NCBI GenBank assembly: GCA_048940645.1
Contig: JBHLOI010000023.1
Span: forward strand, 1-51,087
DNA: 51,087 nt
Direction: 5' to 3'
Origin: Promethearchaeota archaeon
Lineage (GTDB): Archaea; Asgardarchaeota; Lokiarchaeia; Sigyniarchaeales; SOKP01
The notes below the pieces were generated by a model that was not told where the DNA came from, did no database searches, and saw nothing but the letters and a program-made list of their open reading frames with translations. Shown here piece after piece: positions 35,740 through 43,207 of the stretch (positions are counted from its first letter, which is position 1; every line of letters starts with the position of its first letter). Position numbers and translations under genes: made by a program.

Positions 35740-38127
35740 TTAAATTTCAAAATGATATTTATTTTCTCTTTCTACAGGATATCCCTTTCTTTGCCAAACT
35801 CTCATCCCACCTGATAAGTTTCTTACATCTCTATAGCCTTCTCTTACTAATAGTTGGGCAGCCATCATTGATCTTCCACCAACAGCACATAATACTACAA
35901 TTTCTTTGTCCTTATATTCATTTAATAAATCTACATTACGTATTAATTTTCCTAAAGGAATTAATTTCGCATCTTTAATATTACCCACATTATGGTATTC
36001 TTGTGGTTCTCTTACATCTACTATTATTGCAGGACAATCGTCTGTACCTAATCTATCAAAAAGTTCATCAACACTGATTTCTGACAACGCAGGGGCGTCT
36101 TGGGTTCTTAATTCCGCTCTAGTTTTCTTCCTAACTTTAATTGGAGCTTTAAGTTCATCCGAAGTTACTTCACCCTTTTCAAGAATTGCAACTAGTTTTC
36201 CTTCTTCTTTTCCTAGCTTTAGTAGATTTACACTTTCATTTAGCTTCACATAAGCTTCTACGCTAGATTTAAATCCTGGATCTGTTGCATAAATTTTTAG
36301 TTTTTTACCTTGAGATAGATTTTCAAGCCCTTGTATAAGTGCATTTAATGGGCCTGGACATGAAATACCACACGCATCAACTTCCATAAGTTCATCGATT
36401 TCAAAAGTTTTTCTATCAATCATTTCTTCGATGACTTCTTCTGGTGGTCCACAAGCTTCGGCAATTTCTTGTGTAGTGGCAGCTGCAGTCTTAAATAGTT
36501 TATATCCCCCAGTAAGGTTATAAACACTATTAAAACCTTTTTGTACCAATAATCTTGTTGTTAAATACCCTCTAAACCCAACCTCACAAAACACATAAAT
36601 ATCTTTATCTTTTGGTATTTCATTTAATCTATTTCTCAACTCTAAATCATTAATATTTACAGCATTTTCTATACTTCCAACTGCATATTCTTCTGGAGTT
36701 CTGACATCAAGAAGGAAACTATTATTTTGTTGTATTTCTGGCAAATCTTCCCAATGCCATATGGGATGATCGCCTTTGATAACGTTTGCCCCAACAAATC
36801 CTGCCATATTCACAGGATCTTTTGCCGAACCAAATGGAGGCGCATAAGTAAGTTCTAACTCTTCTAAATCAAATACTGTTCCACCAAACTTTATTACAGT
36901 TGAAATTACATCTATACGTTTTTCTGTACCTGAACCTCCAACTGCTTGAGCTCCTAAGATTTTTCCAGTAGGAACTTCAAACAGTAACTTTAAAGTGATT
37001 GGAGTGGCTCCAGGATAATAACCAGCATGGTTATTTGGATGCACATATATTTTTTCATATTTTATATCTGTATTCTTTAGTTGTTTTTCACTTAATCCTA
37101 CAAATGAAACTGTTAGATCAAAAACTTTTAAAACAGAAGCTCCTAAAACGCCTTTATATTTAGAAAATCTTCCAGCAATGTTATCAGCTGCGATTCTTCC
37201 TTGCTTATTTGCAGGACCTGCTAAAGGAATCGCTGTTGGTTCATTTGTGACAAAATTTTTAGTCTGAACTGCATCTCCCACAGCGAAAATATAAGGATCT
37301 GAAGTCCGCATATTTTCATCTACAACTATGTGTCCTTTTGGTCCGAGTTTTAAACCTGCATCTTTTGCTAACTTATTTTCAGGTTTTACTCCAATAGTTA
37401 AGATAACAATGTCAGTTTTAACTTTTTTACCGCTCTTTGGTATCACATAATTACATTTATTCTGATCACATTCAAATGAATCTACAGCATCTCCTAATTG
37501 AAGGCATACCCCGTTTAAAATTAATTCTTGATGTACAAATTGAGCCATCTCTTTATCTAATGGTGCCAGCACTTGATCCAGCATTTCAACTATTTTGACT
37601 CTAATTCCTCTTTCTTTCAAGTTTTCAGCCATCTCTAAACCGATATATCCACCCCCAATTATAGTGGCATGTTTCACTTCATTTTTCTCGGCGAACTCTC
37701 TTATTTTCACAGAATCTGGAATTGTTCTAAGTGTAAAACTTGGTACTTCTTCCAATCCTTTAAATGGGGGAACTATTGGAGATGCACCAGGAGAGAGTAT
37801 TAAGTAATCGTATTCTAAACTATATTCTTTATCAATTTCAAGATTTTTAATATTTACAGTCTTTTCTTCCTTATTAATTGATAATACTTCATGATTTACC
37901 CTCACATCAATATTAAATCTATCGAAAAAATCTTCAGGAGTCATCAGTTCTAACTGTTCACGTTCTTTAATCACATTTCCTACATAATAAGGTAAACCAC
38001 AATTTGCAAATGAAACATAAAGGCCCTTTTCAAGAACAATTATCTCGAAATCCTCCCTTAACCTTCTTAAACGAGCTGCTGCAGAAGCGCCTCCAGCAAC
38101 TCCACCAATAATTACAACTCTTTGCAT
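35740..38127 (-). CDS. CoA-disulfide/persulfide reductase fused to rhodanese, TusA and a second rhodanese
   Basis: GGVAGG, SFANCGLPY, YAPPF; rhodanese FCEVGFR; TusA DACGISCPGP; rhodanese LCAVGGRS. Confidence 0.92.
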   Translation of the reverse strand: MQRVVIIGGVAGGASAAARLRRLREDFEIIVLEKGLYVSFANCGLPYYVGNVIKEREQLELMTPEDFFDRFNIDVRVNHEVLSINKEEKTVNIKNLEIDKEYSLEYDYLILSPGASPIVPPFKGLEEVPSFTLRTIPDSVKIREFAEKNEVKHATIIGGGYIGLEMAENLKERGIRVKIVEMLDQVLAPLDKEMAQFVHQELILNGVCLQLGDAVDSFECDQNKCNYVIPKSGKKVKTDIVILTIGVKPENKLAKDAGLKLGPKGHIVVDENMRTSDPYIFAVGDAVQTKNFVTNEPTAIPLAGPANKQGRIAADNIAGRFSKYKGVLGASVLKVFDLTVSFVGLSEKQLKNTDIKYEKIYVHPNNHAGYYPGATPITLKLLFEVPTGKILGAQAVGGSGTEKRIDVISTVIKFGGTVFDLEELELTYAPPFGSAKDPVNMAGFVGANVIKGDHPIWHWEDLPEIQQNNSFLLDVRTPEEYAVGSIENAVNINDLELRNRLNEIPKDKDIYVFCEVGFRGYLTTRLLVQKGFNSVYNLTGGYKLFKTAAATTQEIAEACGPPEEVIEEMIDRKTFEIDELMEVDACGISCPGPLNALIQGLENLSQGKKLKIYATDPGFKSSVEAYVKLNESVNLLKLGKEEGKLVAILEKGEVTSDELKAPIKVRKKTRAELRTQDAPALSEISVDELFDRLGTDDCPAIIVDVREPQEYHNVGNIKDAKLIPLGKLIRNVDLLNEYKDKEIVVLCAVGGRSMMAAQLLVREGYRDVRNLSGGMRVWQRKGYPVERENKYHFEI

Positions 38128-38403: not shown

Positions 38404-39564
38404 TTGAAGAAAAAGATAATTATAATAGCATTGTTATCCATAATTATAATTTCAGCACTGACATTTTCTATTATTTGGTATTTGAATTCAAATACAAAAA
38501 AAATATTTGGTTATGATATAGAACTGGCTTTTCCGAATCTTACATTTATAAATCCTGTAGGAATTTATTCACCAAATGATGGTTCGAATCGTTTATTTAT
38601 CTTGGAACAAGGAGGCAGGATTTTTTCTTTTAACAATAATTACACTGTGCAGCAAAAAAATCTATTTCTTGATATATCTGATCTTATTATTACTGGAGGT
38701 GAAAGGGGATTATTAGGCTTAGCTTTCCACCCTAACTTTTCTCAGAATGGATATTTCTATTTAGATTATACAGATACTAATGGAGATACAGTAGTTTCTC
38801 GTTTTCAGGTGAATTCAGGTAATAAAAATTTTGCAAATAAATCTAGTGAATATATTTTATTAAATGTAGAACAACCCTATTCGAATCATAATGGAGGACA
38901 GATAGCATTCGGACCAGATGGGTATTTATATATAGCTTTAGGAGATGGAGGTTCAGCTGGAGATCCACTGGGAAATGGTCAAAATCGAAATACATTACTA
39001 GGATCAATTTTACGAATTGATGTTGATTCAGCTACACCTTATGCAATTCCTAGTGATAATCCTTTTTTTGGAAATTTAAATGGTTATAGGGAGGAAATTT
39101 ACGCTTTTGGTTTACGAAACCCATGGCGTTTTAGTTTTGATCCTATTACTGGTAATCTTTGGGCAGGAGATGTAGGACAGAGCGCATGGGAAGAGATTGA
39201 TATAATTGAGAGTGGAAATAATTATGGATGGAGTGCAATGGAAGGAAATCACCCATATTCTCCTGGTATCAATGTTACAAAAGTAGAACCTCCAATATAT
39301 GAATATGGACATAATATTGGACATTCCATTACTGGAGGATTTGTTTACCGCGGTTTTAAATTACCAGAATTATATGGTAAATATATATATGGCGATTATG
39401 AATATGGTCAGGTATGGGCATTAAAGTATGATGGATTAAATCCAAGTAATAATTCAATTTTAGTTGATACAACTCTAGAAATAACTTCATTTGGTTTAGA
39501 TGCTAATTATGAAATCTTTTTTTGTGCTTTCAACGGTAAAATTTATACAATTAAAAAAATTTAG
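38404..39564 (+). CDS. glucose/sorbosone (PQQ-type) dehydrogenase family beta-propeller, membrane anchored
   Basis: GERGLLGLAFHP, NHNGG..FGPDG.LY...GDGG, GLRNPWR.SFD, NYGW. Confidence 0.9.
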   Translation: MKKKIIIIALLSIIIISALTFSIIWYLNSNTKKIFGYDIELAFPNLTFINPVGIYSPNDGSNRLFILEQGGRIFSFNNNYTVQQKNLFLDISDLIITGGERGLLGLAFHPNFSQNGYFYLDYTDTNGDTVVSRFQVNSGNKNFANKSSEYILLNVEQPYSNHNGGQIAFGPDGYLYIALGDGGSAGDPLGNGQNRNTLLGSILRIDVDSATPYAIPSDNPFFGNLNGYREEIYAFGLRNPWRFSFDPITGNLWAGDVGQSAWEEIDIIESGNNYGWSAMEGNHPYSPGINVTKVEPPIYEYGHNIGHSITGGFVYRGFKLPELYGKYIYGDYEYGQVWALKYDGLNPSNNSILVDTTLEITSFGLDANYEIFFCAFNGKIYTIKKI

Positions 39565-39686
39565 CTTAATTACAATAAAAATTATTTTTAAGAAATCCTT
39601 CTTTAATAAAATGCCTTCAATTAAGTCTTGATCGACAATGTTTCTAAAAATCTTAAAAAATAAGAAATGATAAAAATTCTGTTTTA

Positions 39687-40481
39687 TTAATTTTCTAAAT
39701 AAATTACAGTATCAATAAAAAGTTCATAATTCTCATCCTCATCAAAGTCATGAATTACTGCCTTTTCTACATCATCAGTCCCTTTTACTTCAAGTAATTC
39801 TGATTCATATAGTATTTTAATGTCTGAAAGTTTTAACTTTTTCTTTAGTTCTTCTGATCCAGGTATATTTTTAGCTGAAGTTAATACAATGACTCTTCCT
39901 GTATATTTTGTTAATTCCAGAGCAAGTTCAAGCGATTTATCCCCTGTATCTAAAATTAAAACTCTTTTGTCTTTAAATTTAAATAAATCTTTTACTTCTC
40001 TATAAACTCCTTTTCCAATAAAATCTTCTAAACCAAGAATGACTTTAATATCAGGTACACTACAAGAAGCTGCAACTTCAACTTCAGAAGTAGTACCAAG
40101 TCTATAATTATCGATTGCGGCTTTTAATGCGTCAGAAGCTAAATTAGAGCAATGCATTTTAATTGGTGGTAATCCTTCTAACTCATCAGCAACATCGGTT
40201 CTGGTAATTTTATAAGCATCTTCTACCTTCATACCCTTTGCCATTTCTGTTGTCATTGAAGATGTTGCAACCGCAGAACCACAACCAAAAGTTCTAAATT
40301 TAATATCTTCAATAATTTCATCTCCATCTTCGTTTTTACCAATTTTTAAAAACATTTCCATCAAATCTCCACATACAGGATTGCCTACTTTTCCATACCC
40401 ATCCGGATTTTCGATTACACCTACATTTCTTGGGTTTCTAAAATGATCTAGAACTTTTTCAGAATATTGAGTTGATTTCAA
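39687..40481 (-). CDS. iscU: IscU/NifU-type Fe-S scaffold fused to a degenerate TrxB NADPH-binding domain
   Basis: YS..V.DHF.NPRN, GNPVCGD, FGCGSA, LPPIKMHCS; C-terminal ~120 aa align by eye with the central domain of the window's TrxB. Confidence 0.88.
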   Translation of the reverse strand: MKSTQYSEKVLDHFRNPRNVGVIENPDGYGKVGNPVCGDLMEMFLKIGKNEDGDEIIEDIKFRTFGCGSAVATSSMTTEMAKGMKVEDAYKITRTDVADELEGLPPIKMHCSNLASDALKAAIDNYRLGTTSEVEVAASCSVPDIKVILGLEDFIGKGVYREVKDLFKFKDKRVLILDTGDKSLELALELTKYTGRVIVLTSAKNIPGSEELKKKLKLSDIKILYESELLEVKGTDDVEKAVIHDFDEDENYELFIDTVIYLEN

Positions 40482-40485
40482 TCTT

Positions 40486-41676
40486 TTATTTCACCTCTTT
40501 ATATTGTTTTAATAATTCAGGAGGAGTTAAAGGAGACATTATTCTTAATCTTTTTACTGCTCCAGGTATTACCTCAATTAATTTGTTAATGTCAGTTTCT
40601 TTTGTTGTTCTTCCCAAAGAAACTAAAAGACTACCATGTGCCTCTTCATGTAATAAGCCCATCGCTATTAAGGTATGTGAAGGTTCTAAGGTTTTAGAAG
40701 AACATGCAGAACCAGTAGCAGCAGCAATTCTATGTGCTTTTAACTCCAAAATTAATGATTCTCCTTCAATGTAATCAAATCTAAAATGAGCATTATTGGC
40801 CAGCCGCCTTTCTGGATGACCATTTAAATGGGAATTTGGTATTATTTCAAGCACTTCACTGATTAATTTATCTCTTAATCCTTTAAGATATTCGACTTCT
40901 TTTGGCATTTCATTTTTTGTAATTTCAGTAGCTTTAGCAAATCCAACAATACCTGGTATATTTTCAGAACCTGATCTGAAACCTCTTTCTTGACCTCCTC
41001 CTATAATAATCGGATTAACTCTCACTCCTTTTTTCAAATATAGGGCTCCAACTCCACGCGGCCCATAAATATCGTTCGAGGATAAGGTGAGTAAATCAAC
41101 AGGTATTTTTTGAACATCAATGGGTATTACACTCTCACTCGCAACAGCATCAGTATGTAATAAAATCTTGCGTTCTTGAGCGATTTTACTTATTTCATCA
41201 ATAGGTTGGATTGAACCTACTTCATTACTTGCTGTAGAGATAGAAATTAAAATAGTGTCTTCCTTAATTAACTTTTTTAATTTATCTAATTTTACAACAC
41301 CATAAGTATCAACAGGAACTCTATTTACTGTGAATCCTAATTTTTCTAAATTTTTACTAATATTTAGAATTGAAATATGCTCAATCTCAGAAATAATGAT
41401 ATGATTCCCCTTTCTTTTATAAAAGTTAGCAGCACCTATTAGTGCTAAGTTATTCGATTCTGTTGCACCCGATGTAAAAATAATATCTGATGGATTCGGA
41501 GCATTTATAAAATCTGCTACTTTCTCCCTTGACTTGTCTAAAATGTCAGTGGCTATATCGCCATCAGCATGTAAAGAAGCAGGGTTCGCAAATTTATCTC
41601 TAAAGTATGGCAACATTTCTGAGATAACTCTTTCATCCACAGGCTTAGCTGCTTGGTTATCTAAATATATGCTCAC
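40486..41676 (-). CDS. iscS: IscS-like protein lacking the PLP Schiff-base lysine
   Basis: FTSGATESNN, GGGQE.G.RSG.EN, GSACSS present; SSNDIYGP replaces SxHKxxGP; AGGAGG SD before GTG start. Confidence 0.9.
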   Translation of the reverse strand: MSIYLDNQAAKPVDERVISEMLPYFRDKFANPASLHADGDIATDILDKSREKVADFINAPNPSDIIFTSGATESNNLALIGAANFYKRKGNHIIISEIEHISILNISKNLEKLGFTVNRVPVDTYGVVKLDKLKKLIKEDTILISISTASNEVGSIQPIDEISKIAQERKILLHTDAVASESVIPIDVQKIPVDLLTLSSNDIYGPRGVGALYLKKGVRVNPIIIGGGQERGFRSGSENIPGIVGFAKATEITKNEMPKEVEYLKGLRDKLISEVLEIIPNSHLNGHPERRLANNAHFRFDYIEGESLILELKAHRIAAATGSACSSKTLEPSHTLIAMGLLHEEAHGSLLVSLGRTTKETDINKLIEVIPGAVKRLRIMSPLTPPELLKQYKEVK

Positions 41677-41735
41677 AATTAAAATCCTCCTAAACTTTCA
41701 ATTAATTTAATATAATTTAATAATTTTTATCATAT

Positions 41736-42095
41736 TTAAAACCATTGAGTAGCATCTGCTTCTAGTACTAAATCATTTAAAGTAGCTGCACCTACGATTT
41801 TCGCTCCAGGAATTAAATCAACTTTATCCCAGCCTAGCATCCTTTTTGATGCTTCGCACACTAAGATTTCAACACCCATATCGAGTGATTTATCTATCAT
41901 CTCTTTAACTGTAGGAAACTCCCCAACTTGAATATTTTCTGCTACGCCAGGTTTTAAAATTTTTAAACCCATTCCGAGATAATATACTGTTGCCTTAATA
42001 TCCATTGCTCTAGCTGTTTGTGCTAAAACTAAAGGCGAGTATTGTCTCTCTGGGGCATCAGTTGTTTGAACATACAAAATGTATTTTTCTTCCAT
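41736..42095 (-). CDS. DsrE/DsrF-like sulfur relay protein
   Basis: LA..A.AM...A.VYY...G, GVEILVCEAS, GAKIVGAAT. Confidence 0.85.
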   Translation of the reverse strand: MEEKYILYVQTTDAPERQYSPLVLAQTARAMDIKATVYYLGMGLKILKPGVAENIQVGEFPTVKEMIDKSLDMGVEILVCEASKRMLGWDKVDLIPGAKIVGAATLNDLVLEADATQWF

Positions 42096-42111
42096 TTTTT
42101 TCTACCTTTGA

Positions 42112-42351
42112 TTACTTTTTTCTAAAATAAAATATCAAATCTTCTCCTTCTCTATGAAATTCAACTAATTCAGTATCTGTTCTTTTTGCCCATCTCTTTA
42201 AATCCTCTTCGGCAGCTGGATCATCTGCCAATACTTTGAAGCATACTCCACTCTCCAATGTTTCTGAAAAATTTCTAACTTCAAATAAAGGTTCAGGGCA
42301 ATATAAACCTCTGGTATCTAACTCATAATCATATTTTATTTCTTGTGTCAA
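42112..42351 (-). CDS. tusA: TusA/SirA family sulfur carrier
   Basis: LDTRGLYCPEP, VLADDPAA.ED..RW. Start placed at TTG 42351, 8 nt after an AGGTGA SD. Confidence 0.9.
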   Translation of the reverse strand: MTQEIKYDYELDTRGLYCPEPLFEVRNFSETLESGVCFKVLADDPAAEEDLKRWAKRTDTELVEFHREGEDLIFYFRKK

Positions 42352-42571
42352 ATTATATATCACCTTCAAAATACAGATTAATTACTAAATTCAATATATT
42401 TACAGTTTCTTACACAATTAAATATTCACATTATAATTTAGTAGAAAAGAATAAGTACTATAAACAGAAAGTAATGTATCTACTAAACAACCTTTATAAA
42501 ATATAAATTATGTAAAAATTTGCTCATATACCAATTTAAAACTAAAGAATAAGAAATATCGTTTTTTCTTT

Positions 42572-43207
42572 TTACATTCCAGCCAAATTTTTAATATGCT
42601 TTACACCCTCTACAGCATCATCTGCAAAGTCATCGGCTCCGAGTTTCTTAGCAAGTTCCATATTCAATGGCGCTCCTCCTACTATAAGTTTTACTTTATC
42701 TCGTAATCCAGCAGTTATTAATGACTCATGAACGACTTTTATTTGTTCAACAGTCATAGTTAGAAGTGAACTTAAACCTATTATTGTCGCACCGCTCTCT
42801 TTCACTTTCTCAACAATTTTGTTTTCATCGACATCCATACCTAAATCATATATCTCAAAGCCAGAACTAAGGAGGAGTGAGGCCAGTATATTCTTTCCAA
42901 TATCATGGTTATCACCTTTAACTGTTGCCAATATAATTTTCACTTTCTCCTCTGATTTATCGGTAGCAGCTAAAGCTGGTTGCAGTATTTTAAATGCTTC
43001 TTTCATGGTCTCCCCAGCTAAAACTAATTCAGTTAAATAATACTCTTTTTCCTCATATCTTCTCCCAACTTCATCCATGCCTTTTGTTAATGCATCTAAT
43101 ACATCAAATGGATCCTTATCGTCTACCTCTAAAGCTTCTTTCACAGCATCTGCAATATCGTCTACTTCTAACTCAATAATTAATTCGGTTAATTTCTCAA
43201 AATCCAT
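42572..43207 (-). CDS. corrinoid (B12-binding) protein, methyltransferase-cognate type
   Basis: Cap domain L..GM.EVG..YE..EY, GDNHDIGKN (DxHxxG), GLSSLLT, VGGAP. Confidence 0.92.
   Translation of the reverse strand: MDFEKLTELIIELEVDDIADAVKEALEVDDKDPFDVLDALTKGMDEVGRRYEEKEYYLTELVLAGETMKEAFKILQPALAATDKSEEKVKIILATVKGDNHDIGKNILASLLLSSGFEIYDLGMDVDENKIVEKVKESGATIIGLSSLLTMTVEQIKVVHESLITAGLRDKVKLIVGGAPLNMELAKKLGADDFADDAVEGVKHIKNLAGM

Follow-up and report, generated by a model that had tools for sequence, protein, structure and literature searches.

The window analysed in this study is a stretch of 51,087 nucleotides (nt) from a Promethearchaeota archaeon (contig JBHLOI010000023.1, positions 1 to 51,087). 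Its minus strand carries an operon of four genes, in the order tusA, dsrE, iscS and an iscU fusion, whose IscS resembles a cysteine desulfurase and lacks the catalytic lysine. These genes are: (i) tusA (42112..42369), encoding an 85-amino-acid (aa) sulfur carrier with the CPxP cysteine (GLYCPEP; Pfam TusA 64 bits versus a cut-off of 28.6), (ii) dsrE (41736..42095), encoding a 119-aa carrier of the DsrE family, whose active-site cysteine is Cys80 (VCEASK) and which has WF at its C terminus (Pfam DsrE 50.8 bits, above the cut-off of 22.7; DrsE_2 56 bits), (iii) iscS (40486..41676), encoding a 396-aa group-I IscS/NifS homologue (Aminotran_5 252.6 bits) with Asp202 at the position of the Schiff-base lysine, and (iv) the iscU fusion (39687..40481), encoding a 264-aa protein that joins an IscU scaffold (NifU_N 155.7 bits) to a fold of the thioredoxin reductase (TrxR) type NAD(P)H domain. 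The open reading frame coordinates on the minus strand bear out the earlier note, made from the letters of this DNA, in that all four genes are co-oriented and separated by gaps of 16, 59 and 4 nt. The tusA boundary given there, 42351, does coincide with an in-frame TTG, but the longer reading frame, beginning with the TTG at 42369, was taken here, and a GTG at 42363 is also possible. A GGAGG precedes the GTG start of iscS by 8 nt. The double stop (TAA TAA) of the iscU fusion is followed by a T-rich tract (39640..39686, minus strand), read directly in the sequence, which is likely to be the archaeal terminator of the operon.

The IscS of this operon reads LSSNDIYGP where the paralogue in its own genome reads SAHKLYGP and the relatives read S-x-H-K. 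Asp202 replaces the Schiff-base lysine, Asn201 replaces the histidine and Ala179 the glutamine, and the loop cysteine, Cys325 (GSACSS), is retained; the earlier note had read the missing lysine and the kept cysteine correctly. Its best match in the PDB is IscS2 of Archaeoglobus fulgidus (4EB5; E 8.3e-133, residues 4-383), which reads ISSNDIYGP, and the D199K variant of that protein (4R5F) reads SSNKIYGP at the aligned site, marking the position of the replaced lysine. The SSND/E motif is invariant across 100 orthologues, and only three alignment columns (179, 201 and 202) set 18 members of the lysine-less clade apart from 123 lysine-bearing relatives. We take all three positions to be contacts of pyridoxal phosphate (PLP), and the change is therefore confined to the cofactor site, which has been remodelled while the remainder of the protein stayed constant. 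By its sequence the window IscS is orthologous to A. fulgidus IscS2, which is biochemically inactive, and the window protein appears to have lost PLP chemistry, so that it would be unable to take sulfur from cysteine. In the A. fulgidus structure the mobile-loop cysteine completes the coordination of the IscU-bound [2Fe-2S] cluster as its fourth ligand. The A. fulgidus protein shows no desulfurase activity and contains pyridoxamine phosphate rather than covalently held PLP; a 2022 review called it an inactive paralogue and posed its sulfur source as an open question (PMC8918507).

In a quick rather than careful phylogeny (FastTree), the window IscS falls inside a single clade of 18 rows that is lysine-less throughout (SH-like support of 95) and comprises Asgard and bacterial orthologues, both A. 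fulgidus paralogues and the variants SANS, SSSA, SSGP and SGSD. A second lysine-less group (SAQG, SAQQ, SARS, SAHT, AAPT and others) is placed elsewhere, among lysine-bearing sequences, and well-supported branches force at least three changes of the lysine state. All listed homologues of the window IscS were at least 79% identical to it, and the edges of the family were seen through a search of 50%-identity clusters. Selenocysteine at an in-frame TGA, considered for five Halobacteriota IscS matches, was rejected, as these TGA triplets are natural stop codons.

Residues 1-128 of the IscU fusion form the scaffold (TIGR03419 190.7 bits versus a cut-off of 187.9), with C37, D39, C67, H110 and C111, all of them invariant in 18 fusions from several phyla; the three cysteines, the aspartate and the extra domain claimed previously are thus all present. 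The tail (residues 148-260) matches the NCBIfam model TRX_reduct (E 9e-13, profile positions 117-231), and its match to Pyr_redox is weak. An AlphaFold model of the fusion (mean pLDDT 88.5) contains two confident domains joined by a disordered linker at about residues 135-144. In Foldseek searches the model matched IscU (1e-18), and the tail (145-264) matched the TrxR-like structures 2ZBW (E 1.3e-10) and 2Q7V (about 1e-10), on which it superposes with a root-mean-square deviation of 1.4-2.0 over about 120 residues (2Q7V, 1.4 over 117 columns). A cysteine in the linker (SCS) was considered as the remnant of a redox site and rejected, as it is missing from several orthologues.

The nature of the tail is indicated by a longer form of the same fusion. 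The tail match lay oddly far from IscU in two Halobacteriota loci, and this led to a single 443-aa protein (L228, 161-1492, minus strand) composed of IscU and a complete TrxR-type flavoprotein, with the flavin adenine dinucleotide (FAD) motif GGGxxG, the NAD(P)H motif GxGxxA, a C-terminal G-x-Y-A-x-G-N/D and no CxxC. In another such protein (L237, 5001-6335, plus strand) the FAD and NAD(P)H motifs are likewise intact and CxxC is absent. More than 100 long-form fusions (441-446 aa) were found among the matches listed, from anaerobic methanotrophic archaea of the ANME-2 group (Methanocomedens), Methanoperedens and Methanosarcinales; in databases the IscU-flavoprotein fusions are labelled 'NifU' or 'thioredoxin reductase'. 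A Methanoperedens locus has the order DsrE, SSND-type IscS, IscU-reductase fusion. The window tail is colinear with the NAD(P)H domain of the long form (shared GVY, KRVL, VEK, DE.E and VDAV), has LDTGDKS in the place of GRGYNA or GSGNSA, and is devoid of both FAD halves; in its sequence and its alignment to the long form no GxGxxA, HRR phosphate site, CxxC or FAD domain was found. Given this colinearity, the tail can best be regarded as a remnant or sister of the IscU-tethered reductase. The 'TrxB domain' of the earlier note has to be renamed accordingly, as the flavoprotein of which it is a remnant has no CxxC and is not a thioredoxin reductase proper. The cassette thus exists in three states, namely with plain IscU (Archaeoglobi), with IscU fused to a full reductase (ANME, Methanoperedens) and with IscU fused to a degenerate domain (Asgard archaea, bacteria). 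The degenerate Asgard domain probably has a docking or structural role. A requirement for the TrxR-like tail as the docking site of TusA/DsrE was considered and rejected, because the carriers accompany plain IscU in Archaeoglobi and others.

Both upstream genes encode cysteine-bearing sulfur carriers, as the earlier note had proposed, and both products appear from sequence comparison to be members of dedicated subfamilies. The CPxP cysteine of TusA is invariant among 18 orthologues, and the protein is only 26-31% identical to three of the four other free TusA paralogues of its genome, the fourth being undetectably similar. C80 of DsrE is invariant, with a mean column identity of 76% across Asgard, Halobacteriota and bacterial cassettes and 65-80% identity between phyla, whereas identity to other DsrE paralogues of its own genome is about 25% or undetectable, with the exception of one copy on contig C5 that is 80% identical. 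This second cassette-type DsrE gene adjoins a gene for a MarR-type regulator (L137, 2894-3569). The NCBIfam DsrE2 model gave 34 bits for the window DsrE versus a cut-off of 210. A predicted complex of two chains of the lysine-less IscS with one DsrE (score 0.00, mark 0.32) weighs neither for nor against binding.

The co-occurrence of SSND-type IscS with tusA/dsrE, which the earlier note had raised for Asgard genomes, was found there and far beyond. Within the class of the window organism, the order tusA-(dsrE)-iscS-iscU fusion is kept in 20 of 20 genomes from 7 families, with dsrE absent in three relatives of the same genus. A scan of genome contigs gave 80 loci, all with SSND or SSNE; TusA lies upstream of iscS in 77 of them (two of the remaining three are truncated at the end of a contig), 48 have DsrE, and the IscU fusion is full length in 75, the others being cut or frameshifted. 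Cassette carriers include archaea (Promethearchaeota, Thor-, Hel-, Hod-, Hermod- and Odinarchaeota, and metagenome-assembled genomes of Methanobacteriota/Halobacteriota) and bacteria (Syntrophobacterales, Smithella, strain NaphS2, WOR-3, Stahlbacteria, Actinomycetes, Thermoleophilia, Acidobacteriota and Eubacteriales). A sample of 301 Halobacteriota genomes, 27 with strong matches, yielded 30 loci, of which 29 were SSND-type, and TusA and/or DsrE stood directly upstream in all 29, mostly with plain IscU; the sole lysine-bearing locus (L232) has IscU and no carrier. The IscS of one Halobacteriota genome differs from the PDB chain of A. fulgidus IscS2 by one mismatch in 377 aligned residues. The A. 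fulgidus loci read DsrE-IscS2-IscU and TusA-DsrE-IscS-IscU, so that the genes of the crystallised complex themselves show the linkage. Altogether, in about 130 loci spread over Asgard archaea, Halobacteriota and six or more bacterial groups, TusA and/or DsrE were found beside every IscS of the lysine-less clade with readable upstream DNA, P0137 (SGSD) being different. Such retention of gene order excludes chance and removes the doubt, voiced in the earlier note, that the synteny might not extend to relatives: judged by sequence, the four genes are a real, conserved module.

The linkage is specific to lysine-less IscS. As a control, 50 loci of normal-IscS paralogues were fetched from relatives and 1.5-3 kb was read on each side; 49 were lysine-bearing, and in 47 of these neither TusA nor DsrE occurred within the stretch read. 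No p-value is attached to such counts, because related genomes are not independent. The 50th locus, from an Asgard genome (G045; L184, 3047-4585, plus strand), reads AAPTFYGP, with Pro-Thr for His-Lys, and is placed in the second lysine-less group; IscU follows it, and neither TusA nor DsrE occurs within 3 kb. Among cluster representatives, the nearest lysine-bearing ones (P0124, P0132) have IscS-IscU only, while the lysine-less P0122 (SANS) and P0125 (SSSA) have TusA/DsrE, IscS and plain IscU, and P0121 (SSND) has TusA and IscS. In the second lysine-less group carriers accompany three of the five members examined, for instance in the orders IscS-DsrE-TusA (P0160) and IscS-TusA (P0185), with none at P0165. 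The carriers thus track the loss of the lysine at two or more separate points in the tree. P0137 (SGSD) has no carriers, and its operon contains a lysine-bearing class-V aminotransferase instead: a PF04060 'FeS' protein, the lysine-less IscS, IscU and the aminotransferase with SVHK (L198, 2853-6635, plus strand). The presence of an active-type desulfurase in place of carriers fits a need for an external persulfide donor, and the specificity of the linkage fits carriers that act as donors rather than acceptors.

Several neighbouring genes were also considered. A 795-aa CoADR-rhodanese-TusA-rhodanese fusion (35740..38127, minus strand) contains a CoADR domain with its redox cysteine (SFANCGLPYY), two rhodanese domains, with a rhodanese cysteine, and a TusA domain (42 bits), and scores 531.9 bits with TIGR03385, below the equivalog cut-off of 578.8. 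CoADR-rhodanese enzymes are persulfide/polysulfide reductases. The fusion starts 1559 nt past iscU, separated from it by an opposite-strand gene for a glucose/sorbosone-dehydrogenase-like protein (38404-39564, plus strand; 386 aa, PF07995, with an N-terminal hydrophobic segment). This gene appears to have been inserted recently into a cluster of five genes, which it split, because in the closest relatives (L057-L059) CoADR follows iscU directly, at about 200 nt. The fusion occurs within 6 kb of the cassette in 34 of 57 Asgard loci and in none of the 23 other loci. Its position some 1.5 kb further on the same strand had been noted before and is correct; as a part of the system, however, the gene is specific to Asgard archaea and is, on the sequence evidence, an accessory, lineage-specific addition rather than a core component. 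On the other side, about 200 nt upstream of tusA, lies a gene for a B12-binding corrinoid protein (42572-43207, minus strand), which is probably a separate transcription unit. The B12-binding gene occupies the same place in most genomes of the genus (74-95% identity), and not outside Asgard archaea.

The genome of the window organism (89.6% complete) also encodes a lysine-bearing IscS (SAHK, contig C54), SmsC, SmsB, plain IscU copies, four further free TusA and four further DsrE proteins. One of its contigs (C5; L137, 6332-10794) carries CysE-like, CysK-like (PALP) and IscU genes, with genes for a ThiI/NFACT-R protein, TusA and a ThiF-family member after them. With a normal IscS, SmsCB and cysteine synthesis in the genome, the cassette is not the sole route of Fe-S assembly, nor is cysteine lacking; the label 'cysteine-independent', which the earlier note had given to the operon, is not supported. 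The lysine-bearing IscS also means that a normal desulfurase could load TusA in trans.

Since the carriers follow the loss of desulfurase chemistry and are once replaced by an active desulfurase, the simplest account is that they supply persulfide. We lean, by a small degree, towards a reading in which TusA and DsrE hand persulfide sulfur to the cysteine of the lysine-less IscS and to IscU. The sequences show how the operon is built, which residues it keeps, to which clade its IscS belongs and that the conserved gene linkage is specific to lysine-less IscS, whereas we infer the physical contacts, the way in which sulfur moves and where electrons and sulfur ultimately come from, as follows. The operon would combine an Fe-S assembly complex of the A. 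fulgidus type, made of the lysine-less IscS and IscU, with a sulfur supply of its own. Sulfane sulfur would travel on TusA, and on DsrE where present, in the form of cysteine persulfides and would be delivered to Cys325 of IscS, to the IscU cysteines or to both; there it would be reduced to sulfide and built into the cluster. The two electrons needed per sulfur might come from the complete IscU-fused flavoprotein reductase in the ANME and Methanoperedens relatives, and in the Asgard version from elsewhere, possibly from the neighbouring CoADR-rhodanese-TusA-rhodanese enzyme. The fusion of an NAD(P)H/FAD reductase to IscU in relatives fits sulfur that arrives as S0 and needs reduction. The ultimate source could be polysulfide or S0, by way of rhodanese/CoADR, or a normal IscS acting in trans.

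These two sources divide the preferred reading into two versions, which agree on the direction of flow and differ only in where the sulfur originates. According to one, which we advance tentatively and would not expect to hold, TusA/DsrE load the non-catalytic IscS cysteine and IscU from inorganic sulfane sulfur, without recourse to cysteine, and such a relay would be a third entry of sulfur into Fe-S biogenesis, beside cysteine desulfurases and free sulfide; equally tentative are its further elements, that a scaffold-tethered flavoprotein reductase takes part in some lineages and that the route is old and spread among anaerobic archaea and bacteria. According to the other, which appears rather unlikely, the normal IscS (contig C54) loads TusA from cysteine, TusA passes the sulfur to DsrE and thence to the lysine-less IscS-IscU pair, and the cassette serves as an additional assembly site, spatially apart from the first. 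Of 36 genomes of the genus, 34 have a lysine-bearing IscS orthologue; the window genome has one as well, together with CysE-CysK genes; further class-V aminotransferase genes occur in each of four other cassette-bearing genomes; and one lysine-less IscS-IscU pair shares its operon with an active-type desulfurase, all of which suits a supply from cysteine. Yet the normal IscS never adjoins the cassette, and the Asgard neighbour, a persulfide/polysulfide reductase-rhodanese fusion, points to inorganic sulfane sulfur.

Donation by the carriers has to be weighed against an outward flow, in which the donor is the lysine-less IscS-IscU pair, or the IscS cysteine loaded from sulfide or from a cluster, and TusA/DsrE export the sulfur to tRNA or molybdopterin thiolation, as in the E. 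coli IscS-TusA-TusBCD relay. Several observations speak for this flow or weigh against donation by the carriers. The E. coli precedent runs in the reverse direction, from IscS to TusA and on to the DsrE homologue TusD, and TusA, a DsrE-family protein and IscS are the first three players of the s2U relay of that organism. The lysine-less IscS of the second-group representative P0183 stands in a row of MoaD(ThiS), MoaE, IscS (SARS), TusA, Mrp/ApbC-like and ThiI/NFACT-R genes (L235, 3200-7717, plus strand), a thiolation context that suits export. In addition, two lysine-less IscS genes have TusA (one also DsrE) and no adjoining IscU. It is also not exact that carriers never stand beside a normal IscS, as two of the 49 lysine-bearing loci (L177 and L180, from G044 and G037, both of genus g2) have TusA and an opposite-strand TusA-DsrE-DsrE cluster nearby, all of them from other subfamilies than those of the cassette. 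Moreover, transfer by the cassette TusA and DsrE is suggested by gene linkage and residues; DsrE is missing from 32 of the 80 cassettes and TusA from the A. fulgidus IscS2 locus, so that neither carrier alone is obligatory in cis; and the reductase fusion is no proof of S0 input, because reductive cluster coupling also needs electrons. Nevertheless, an IscS devoid of PLP chemistry has no known way to make a persulfide, and export would predict carriers beside active IscS at least as often, when 47 of 49 such loci lack them. No gene for TusE/DsrC, MnmA, Ncs6 or MoaD is present in the window cassette, and IscU almost always accompanies IscS of the A. fulgidus-type lysine-less clade. On this balance we consider an outward flow improbable.

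Little probability is likewise assigned to the idea that free sulfide is the sulfur source, with TusA, DsrE and CoADR-rhodanese merely stripping persulfide or polysulfide adducts from the cysteines of IscS and IscU in a sulfidic habitat. Such a cleaning function would agree with the CoADR-rhodanese protein (by family knowledge a persulfide/polysulfide reductase) beside the cassette in 34 of 57 Asgard loci, but CoADR is absent from non-Asgard cassettes. Direct use of sulfide is a published hypothesis for the A. fulgidus IscS-IscU pair (PMC8918507), and SMS systems use sulfide (PMC12192291). Left unexplained, however, are the carriers' tracking of lysine loss rather than habitat, the lysine-bearing IscS-IscU pairs of the same genomes that have no carriers, and the operon in which an active desulfurase replaces them.

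In a full-text literature search, with subscription journals outside it, no paper was found that links TusA/DsrE to the A. fulgidus-type lysine-less IscS, and no description of an IscU-reductase fusion was found. The inactive A. fulgidus type of IscS was known, and the TusA/DsrE gene context is new. The A. fulgidus IscS-IscU complex is a structural reference for a [2Fe-2S] cluster held between IscS and IscU. The conserved linkage offers a testable answer to the question of where such "dead" IscS-IscU pairs obtain their sulfur, since the linked TusA/DsrE, including those at the A. fulgidus loci, are concrete candidate donors that can be tested with already crystallised proteins. Reviews list the electron donor of MIS-type systems as unknown, and the full IscU-reductase fusion of methane-oxidising archaea is a candidate for that role. 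If the preferred reading is true, models of how Fe-S clusters were made early on, before oxygen, would gain a persulfide relay, and at least 120 listed relatives of the window IscS would lose their database label 'cysteine desulfurase' as incorrect.

Compared with known systems, the cassette shares with MIS (MisS-MisU) a two-gene core of IscS-like and IscU-like proteins with no HscAB, IscA, Fdx or CyaY adjoining (none of HscAB, IscA and Fdx is encoded by the genes read between 35.7 and 47.7 kb of the window). MIS of archaea and anaerobic bacteria has been described with a cysteine desulfurase and no further components (PMC12192291 among the sources), whereas in the window the desulfurase lysine and two further putative PLP contacts are replaced and two sulfur carriers are fixed in the operon. 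The E. coli IscS-TusA-TusBCD and Allochromatium vinosum Rhd-TusA-DsrEFH-DsrC relays use the same IscS, TusA and DsrE/TusD families with carrier cysteines, but their source is an active desulfurase or rhodanese and their sink is tRNA or DsrAB; in the window, unlike in the Tus relay, the lysine-less IscS would not be a source, its operon partner is IscU, and the cassette contains neither TusE/DsrC nor MnmA. In the SUF system (SufS-SufE/SufU) a dedicated protein carrier brings persulfide sulfur toward the scaffold, as would be the case in the relay proposed here, although that carrier is loaded by an active desulfurase and the SufE/SufU families are unrelated to TusA and DsrE. The IscU-TrxR-like fusions of ANME-2, Methanoperedens and Methanosarcinales belong to the same cassette, with TusA/DsrE and SSND- or ASND-type IscS, and keep both halves of the FAD domain and GxGxxA, all of which the window protein lacks. 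The closest counterpart is the A. fulgidus IscS2-IscU pair (4EB5, 4EB7, 4HVK; D199K variant 4R5F), which belongs to the same lysine-less clade, with SSND, the loop cysteine and IscU immediately downstream. Its IscU is a plain protein of 156 aa, in contrast to the window IscU with its 120-aa reductase-domain remnant, but the A. fulgidus loci, like the window, have carriers upstream, either DsrE (IscS2 locus) or TusA and DsrE (paralogous locus).

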